Positions 44,590 to 45,147 of a stretch of 64,000 nt of DNA are shown here, piece by piece; the first letter of the stretch is position 1; the number at the start of each line of letters is the position of its first letter. Source of the DNA: Escherichia coli (GTDB taxonomy: Bacteria; Pseudomonadota; Gammaproteobacteria; Enterobacterales; Enterobacteriaceae); NCBI RefSeq assembly GCF_045037415.1, contig NZ_CP173438.1; one strand, written 5' to 3'. Position numbers and translations under genes: made by a program. The notes under the pieces were generated by a model. That model searched no databases, had not been told where the DNA came from, and was given only the letters and a program-made list of their open reading frames with translations.

Positions 44590-45147
44590 GCAATCAATGC
44601 CCGGTTACGTGCGCGTACACCGGGCAGTTTCTCCGTCATACAATCATTCTTTTTTTGTCTAAATGTTGTTAATATTTAACAACTCTCGATAGTTATTTTC
44701 CCATTATTGAATCCCGTAATAAAATAAAGAAGATAATGGTTTTGTGTCTTGAATATATATTTATTGATTTAATTAATATTAAATTTTAGCAATAAATAAT
44801 GGTAAGGTCATTATAATTTTTTAGTGTGCTTTATAAGCAATTCATTTTTGTTGATTATGATAGTTTGTTTTTTGTTGATAATTCGCATGTTTTTTTGTTG
44901 GAAAGTGGTGAAAGTATTTTGCCGATGTATTAATTAATAAAATCTACATAAAGTCTTTAAGTATTACTAAATTGAGTTTTTTTATAGATAAGACCAACAT
45001 AAAGACACACCAGAGAATACTTGTTTACATTCTATAATTATATTGGAATGTATATGTTCAATGGCTAACTATAAGTATTGGACATAACATATATTAATTT
45101 TATGTCAGGTACTTATATTATGACTTTTAATGATTTAAGGACAAATA

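Follow-up and report, generated by a model that had tools for sequence, protein, structure and literature searches.

The AT-rich sixA-yfcV spacer of ST131-type Escherichia coli as a probable H-NS- and StpA-silenced control region of the yfc fimbrial operon

The window, 64,000 nucleotides long, comes from the chromosome of an ST131-type E. coli of phylogroup B2. Positions 25336-50000 are 99.99% identical to strain MB1341, and the spacer between sixA and yfcV is 100% identical to that of many O25b:H4-ST131 genomes. The gene order is fadI, fadJ (41757-43901), sixA (44104-44589), the 558-bp spacer (44590-45147), and a seven-gene chaperone-usher operon. sixA lies on the plus strand, has a normal G+C content, and encodes a phosphohistidine phosphatase (ORF and annotation; Pfam His_Phos_1); it is 94.9% identical to its K-12 counterpart up to position 44585 (blastn). 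The operon opens on the same strand with the gene for a major fimbrial subunit of 188 amino acids, the B2-type allele of yfcV (45148-45714; Pfam Fimbrial domain, PF00419, 8.8e-14). In ST131 the product is annotated as WP_000032632.1, and it shares only 69% protein identity with K-12 YfcV. yfcV is a widely used marker of uropathogenic E. coli. The remainder of the operon (45789-51549, plus strand) is intact, as judged from ORFs and ST131 annotation, and comprises an usher, a chaperone, three minor subunits, and an adhesin of the StfH/YfcO family. The usher gene is intact here and a pseudogene in K-12. The operon ends near 51549; the next gene, smrB, lies on the opposite strand.

A G+C-rich hairpin lies directly 3' of the sixA stop codon (44598-44626, plus strand), with an RNA fold energy of -18.8 kcal/mol (z -2.8) and a weak U-tract (AGUUUCUCC). 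Every allele class examined has a hairpin in this position, with a stem that differs in sequence yet remains complementary; the corresponding energies are -37.7 kcal/mol in K-12, -25.9 kcal/mol in EDL933, and -21.0 kcal/mol in PCN033. On this pattern, the hairpin is best read as a probable intrinsic terminator of sixA that lies outside the AT-rich block. The K-12 terminator (locus L002, 10250-10332; z -5.6) is a much longer, near-perfect palindrome, and about 120 bp that follow it in K-12 are missing from the B2 allele.

Beyond the hairpin, the spacer is exceptionally AT-rich. Its G+C content is 26.2% overall (44590-45147), 25.9% from 44600, and 23.0% from 44640 to 45147, compared with 45-55% in the flanking coding DNA and a mean of 48.0% for the window (sd 6.3% in 558-bp sliding windows). 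The lowest 558-bp window in the entire 64 kb starts at 44628, where G+C falls to 24.9%, about 3.7 sd under the mean. Among 27 annotated intergenic regions the spacer again ranks lowest (z = -2.5; the others average 41.3%, sd 6.1%). TpA steps reach 13.1 per 100 bp, 2.4-fold above the window value of 5.4. T-tracts are found at 44650, 44890, and 44977 (T7), at 44817 and 44868 (T6), and at 44845 (T5), and unbroken runs of A and T extend up to 22 bp (44767). In composition, the region thus resembles an H-NS target, with 74-77% A+T over about 510-558 bp and abundant TpA. The AT-rich core (44636-45147, about 23% G+C, no strand assigned) presumably holds the H-NS/StpA platform, one or more putative yfc promoters, and the 5' leader, a reading drawn from composition, promoter-like hexamers, and the CFT073 and K-12 literature.

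The original prediction described a strongly AT-rich interval at 44600-45147, between sixA and yfcV, with long A/T tracts. The contrast with the surrounding coding DNA is borne out, the spacer being the most AT-rich 558 bp of the window, and the flanking labels are correct by gene layout and annotation, the locus being yfc; the downstream gene is more precisely the divergent B2-type allele. The interval itself needs trimming to a core of about 510 bp, since its first 40 bp or so carry the G+C-rich hairpin and are not AT-rich. A/T tracts are present, but their length is moderate, at T5-T7 and A/T runs of at most 22 bp.

Other parts of the window are AT-rich as well. The second most AT-rich stretch is the 32.5-34.7 kb part of a P4-like element (29-35% G+C), and the yfdX-frc (7091-7601) and evgA-emrK (17102-17516) spacers likewise stand at 33-34% G+C. 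The frc/yfdX spacer carries an H-NS flag in the same genomic SELEX table that lists yfcV (PMC3946193).

The spacer occurs in at least five allele classes: the B2 type found in the window, the K-12 type, and those of EDL933, PCN033, and Z0117EC0005. The window type is present in about 1,230 of 5,426 complete E. coli genomes and the K-12 type in about 3,070-3,530. Identity between classes is 50-62%, against 47-50% for shuffled sequences of the same composition, and rises somewhat (60-62%) in the 200 bp nearest the gene. Every class nevertheless keeps a G+C content of 26-32%, along with a hairpin at the terminator, the ribosome-binding region, and a handful of short islands. Conservation of composition and not of sequence is what would be expected if a protein that reads AT-richness must bind here, an expectation that falls short of proof since mutational bias could contribute.

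The divergence from K-12 has a sharp upstream boundary. The flanks are 92-95% identical to K-12 and the whole yfc operon (45113-50731) about 72%, with the break falling at the sixA stop codon. No part of the window spacer is aligned with the K-12 spacer by blastn. These comparisons mark the yfc operon as an allelic cassette that has diverged within a syntenic core locus, and the yfc genes have been described as highly polymorphic, with trees discordant with MLST (PMC4850163). The K-12 and B2 spacers are for practical purposes unalignable, and K-12 data are therefore not transferable to the B2 spacer by homology.

Candidate promoter signals are numerous and individually weak. A simple hexamer scan counts eight promoter-like pairs in the spacer versus 3.9 +/- 1.9 in dinucleotide shuffles (a result also expressed per 1 kb), and this excess was counted in favor of a regulatory region. 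The scan returns several 9/12 consensus matches in the spacer and no convincing or strong -35/-10 pair. It matches simple consensus sequences and is a different measure from the PlatProm start-point density by which Panyukov and Ozoline define promoter islands, namely a density of eight or more predicted start points per 100 bp, sustained for 300 bp or longer, with little transcription (PMC3661553). For K-12, genomic SELEX led to a predicted promoter, TTGAAA-17-TATAGT, at a distance of 383 bp upstream of the ATG; its hexamers are without good counterparts in the B2 allele in the alignments. No mapped yfcV promoter was found in the literature searched, and consensus searches for IHF and CRP returned no sites within the spacer.

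Alignments identify several short plus-strand islands in the otherwise variable spacer. In a seven-allele alignment, TCTTGAAT (44747-44754) appears as TCTTGA or TCTTAA in all allele classes and adjoins the position of the K-12 SELEX-predicted promoter. A cluster of T-tracts spaced 22-28 bp apart follows (44817-44896, plus strand: T6 at 44817, T5 at 44845, T6 at 44868, T7 at 44890), of which the tract at 44868 is also kept in every allele class. Across nine B2-type alleles, lengths range over T6-T9 (44817), T6-T8 (44868), and T7-T9 (44890). All of these tracts are expanded in strain SCU-112, possibly through homopolymer errors of long-read assembly. Further downstream, ATTAATTAATAAAATCTACAT (44929-44949) contains an ATTAA common to all classes, while the adjoining AAATCTACAT is confined to the B2-type, Z0117, and K-12/O104 classes; TAAATTG is conserved at 44968. 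The best conserved island is CACACCAGAGAATA (45006-45019), which reads CAC[A/G]CCA..GAATA in all five allele classes and is a candidate regulator site or core-promoter element on the strength of its conservation.

Closer to the gene, a perfect -10-like TATAAT (45033-45038, plus strand) results from an A at 45036 in the ST131 lineage. Among nine B2-type alleles, the window and strain S87 (ST131 lineage) carry TATAAT, and CFT073 and six others carry TATGAT. No -35 element matching this TATAAT was found. The alignments also show a plus-strand island, TTCAATGGCT (45057-45066), which is followed by TATAA(G/A), and a ribosome-binding region, TTTAAGGACAAATA (45134-45147, plus strand), that is invariant in all alleles examined.

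Taken alone, the spacer sequence speaks only to composition, and the decisive evidence for H-NS comes from published data on relatives. In ChIP-seq of CFT073 (Hustmyer et al. 2022), c2884, which is yfcV (C_RS13680), stands among the H-NS-bound genes in Data set S1, sheet 1E (PMC9765446). In this data set, binding is seen in the wild type, delta-rfaH, and delta-stpA, and c2884 is also bound by StpA (PMC9765446). Occupancy is modest, at 0.14 on the authors' scale, a per-gene average that does not resolve the spacer (PMC9765446). The neighbors of c2884, sixA and the usher gene, are absent from the bound-gene list of sheet 1E (PMC9765446). A bound c2884 beside unlisted neighbors fits a short filament that would be nucleated in the spacer and spread into the first gene, as far as a per-gene table can indicate. 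The CFT073 spacer, 566 bp in length, is 97% identical to that of the window.

Evidence from K-12 points the same way. The K-12 yfcV/sixA spacer belongs to a set of 78 promoter islands, and the data sets of Kahramanoglou and of Oshima both score it as bound by H-NS (PMC3661553, Table 1). In genomic SELEX, it gives an RpoD-holoenzyme peak and carries an H-NS flag alongside the predicted promoter (PMC3946193). Reviews citing Korea et al. 2010 describe yfc as "functional but cryptic" and name H-NS as a repressor of cryptic chaperone-usher fimbriae in K-12 (PMC3559732, PMC3966885). Regulator overproduction also affects yfcV. TosR, a PapB-family protein, raises it in CFT073 by log2 5.2 (2^5.2-fold); according to the authors, members of the PapB family counteract H-NS/Lrp silencing where DNA is AT-rich (PMC5956150). 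BolA overproduction likewise raises yfcV in K-12 (PMC4337573). No hns-mutant reporter assay for yfc was found in the literature searched.

Sequence features sometimes associated with H-NS nucleation are unremarkable in the spacer. The high-affinity motif TCGATAAATT is not enriched, with one site at two or fewer mismatches versus 2.2 +/- 1.5 in composition-matched shuffles. This nucleation motif is common in H-NS targets and is not obligatory. Intrinsic curvature peaks at 16.2 deg/turn, compared with a window 99th percentile of 16.7, as predicted by a wedge model. AA/TT periodicity yields a single peak at 11.0 bp (p ~0.009 uncorrected) that is not significant after correction for the 13 periods scanned.

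The prediction had read the spacer as an H-NS-silenced fimbrial promoter region and proposed H-NS occupancy as a check. Such occupancy is on record for relatives, at CFT073 yfcV and at the K-12 spacer, and the reading gains its support mainly from this literature (H-NS/StpA ChIP-seq in CFT073, promoter island and SELEX in K-12). With a probability of roughly 80%, the spacer is the regulatory region of the yfc operon, silenced by H-NS with StpA in E. coli of the B2/ST131 type. Under this model, the block of about 510 bp and about 77% A+T would serve as the platform for an H-NS and StpA nucleoprotein filament that covers the yfc promoter or promoters and spreads into yfcV. RNA polymerase would still be able to bind but would be occluded or trapped, and productive transcription would stay very low in ordinary culture. 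Expression would then need a counter-silencer or an environmental cue that loosens the filament, and TosR/PapB-family proteins and BolA, which raise yfcV when overproduced, might act at this step. We infer that occupancy in the window strain matches that in its relatives, with nucleation in the spacer, and that this occupancy causes low expression; the promoter is placed in the spacer by the same reasoning. The step from H-NS binding to the crypticity of yfc is likewise presumed. Other proteins that bind AT-rich DNA, namely Lrp, IHF, and Fis, could contribute as much as H-NS.

The AT-richness might instead be the generic composition of intergenic and promoter DNA, reflecting UP elements and easy melting, with a weak promoter or a missing activator, and not H-NS, keeping yfc low. 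Intergenic DNA in the window is indeed AT-richer than coding DNA in general (41% versus 48% G+C), and both the lack of a strong -35/-10 pair and the unenriched H-NS motif would suit such an explanation. The spacer nevertheless sits 2.5 sd below the other intergenic regions, and published ChIP places H-NS and StpA on CFT073 yfcV and H-NS on the K-12 spacer. RNA polymerase holoenzyme, moreover, binds the K-12 spacer unaided in vitro (PMC3946193). Generic composition is accordingly considered unlikely as the whole explanation.

Phase variation is common among fimbrial operons. The spacer might therefore be a switch, operating through fimS-like inversion, Pap-like Dam/Lrp methylation, or slipped-strand changes of T-tracts within a promoter spacer. 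Imperfect inverted repeats do exist, such as a 28-nt pair of 71% complementarity at 44751/44928, and T-tract length varies among B2-type alleles, as in the T6-T9 series at 44817. The repeats are nonetheless weak (71-83% complementarity in very AT-rich DNA), and no recombinase or PapI/PapB-like gene adjoins the operon. More than 1,200 genomes match the spacer at one collinear place, and two places are the most seen in any genome; among the matches listed, with the few two-place genomes set aside, none shows an inverted segment. GATC is entirely missing from the window, CFT073, and Z0117 spacers. Weak repeats, the lack of recombinase and papI/papB genes, collinear matches, and the lack of GATC together leave the invertible and Dam/Lrp models unsupported. 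As for slippage, the T-tracts are short, their length differences are seen from lineage to lineage and have no demonstrated counterpart inside a single lineage, and some of the variation could stem from homopolymer errors in long reads. A switch of any of these kinds is thus very improbable. An equally remote suggestion is that the spacer encodes a product of its own, whether a small RNA, a cis-regulatory leader, or a small protein. A promoter as far upstream as that predicted for K-12 would give a long 5' leader, and ORFs of 35-37 codons are present at 44824-44937. These ORFs are frameshifted by T-tract indels in alleles 95-97% identical, and for this reason they are not regarded as genes. 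A search of 43800-45900 on both strands found no Rfam match at E <= 1, and outside the short islands the sequence is unconserved between classes.

Silencing by H-NS with StpA, the preferred reading, places the spacer among well-described relatives. The K-12 yfcV/sixA promoter island (island 2453647_489, Panyukov & Ozoline 2013; RpoD SELEX peak, Shimada et al. 2014) matches the window spacer in chromosomal position and, preceding the orthologous operon, in role. This island is strongly AT-rich (32% G+C), bound by H-NS in ChIP, and bound by RNA polymerase, but it is 680 bp long rather than 558 bp, and its identity to the window spacer is about 53-56%, versus about 47% for shuffled sequence. The region upstream of CFT073 c2884 is far closer, being of the same allele class and phylogroup (B2) and aligning over the whole spacer. 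It differs from the window by a few substitutions, by T-tract or 5-bp indels, and by TATGAT in place of TATAAT at 45033-45038, and its H-NS binding is reported per gene.

The promoters of yad and F9 (ydeT-ydeQ) offer a functional comparison, as these fimbrial operons are also core-associated and are expressed little in culture. H-NS binds their promoter fragments, and both are strongly derepressed in hns mutants of CFT073/EC958 (PMC13245861, PMC3966885). Derepression in hns mutants is shown directly for yad and F9; the reading of yfc draws on occupancy in relatives. The fimS and pap regions share AT-richness, a position upstream of the major-subunit gene, and binding by nucleoid proteins including H-NS. 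A fimS-type switch consists of short, near-perfect inverted repeats flanking the promoter, together with an adjacent tyrosine recombinase gene. A Pap-type switch has papI/papB-like genes and, upstream of the promoter, Lrp sites that contain two GATC sequences. The yfc spacer differs from both in having no flanking recombinase genes, good inverted repeats, GATC pair, or papI/papB-like genes. A fimS-type invertible switch was rejected on its repeats, only 71-83% complementary, and the want of a nearby recombinase gene; a Pap-type Dam/Lrp switch was rejected on the missing GATC sites and papI/papB-like genes.

The region is, in sum, the B2 allele of a feature already catalogued in K-12 and effectively assayed in CFT073, and so of an already known kind. 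Little here is new: for the yfc operon of an ST131-type strain, the textbook mechanism of silencing by H-NS/StpA at an AT-rich fimbrial promoter region most probably holds. The control region retains its composition, yet its sequence has diverged nearly to the level of random DNA, and in practice the B2 allele, not that of K-12, should therefore be used in experiments. A more speculative and rather doubtful extension is that the yfc control region is a hypervariable, allele-specific cassette, in which selection acts on composition, through H-NS/StpA silencing, and on short islands that serve as sites for a dedicated activator or counter-silencer. The islands in question may be CACACCA..GAATA (45006-45019), TTCAATGGCT (45057-45066), and ATTAA..TCTACAT (44929-44949), named from their conservation. 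Lineage-specific changes would then shift the yfc set-point of ST131 relative to other B2 strains; candidates may include the ST131 G-to-A change at 45036, which creates TATAAT, and the T-tract lengths.

Insertion sequences are found both in alleles of the spacer and elsewhere in the window. At least four complete genomes carry an IS1 inside the sixA-yfcV spacer (window-equivalent position 44693; loci L004 and L005). The B2-type strains AREA_494 and AVS0575 share the insertion point and the transposase protein; in AVS0575, yfcV and the 5' part of the usher gene have been lost as well. K-12-type strains with an insertion are XJW9B277 (IS1A) and OY754416 (IS1B). To judge from these genomes, IS1 seems to insert repeatedly into the AT-rich spacer. 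The window has its own IS1 copy (about 24570-25337) between dsdC and an AlpA-family gene, adjoining a (CCCAG)n pentanucleotide repeat (about 24441-24492); this copy is missing from the otherwise identical ST131 strain MB1341. Beside a tRNA-Arg lies the P4-like integrated element (about 25500-36150), whose genes belong to the AlpA, P2-family capsid-like, Icd-like, DUF927, ogr/Delta-like, and sce7725/sce7726 families and include an integrase.
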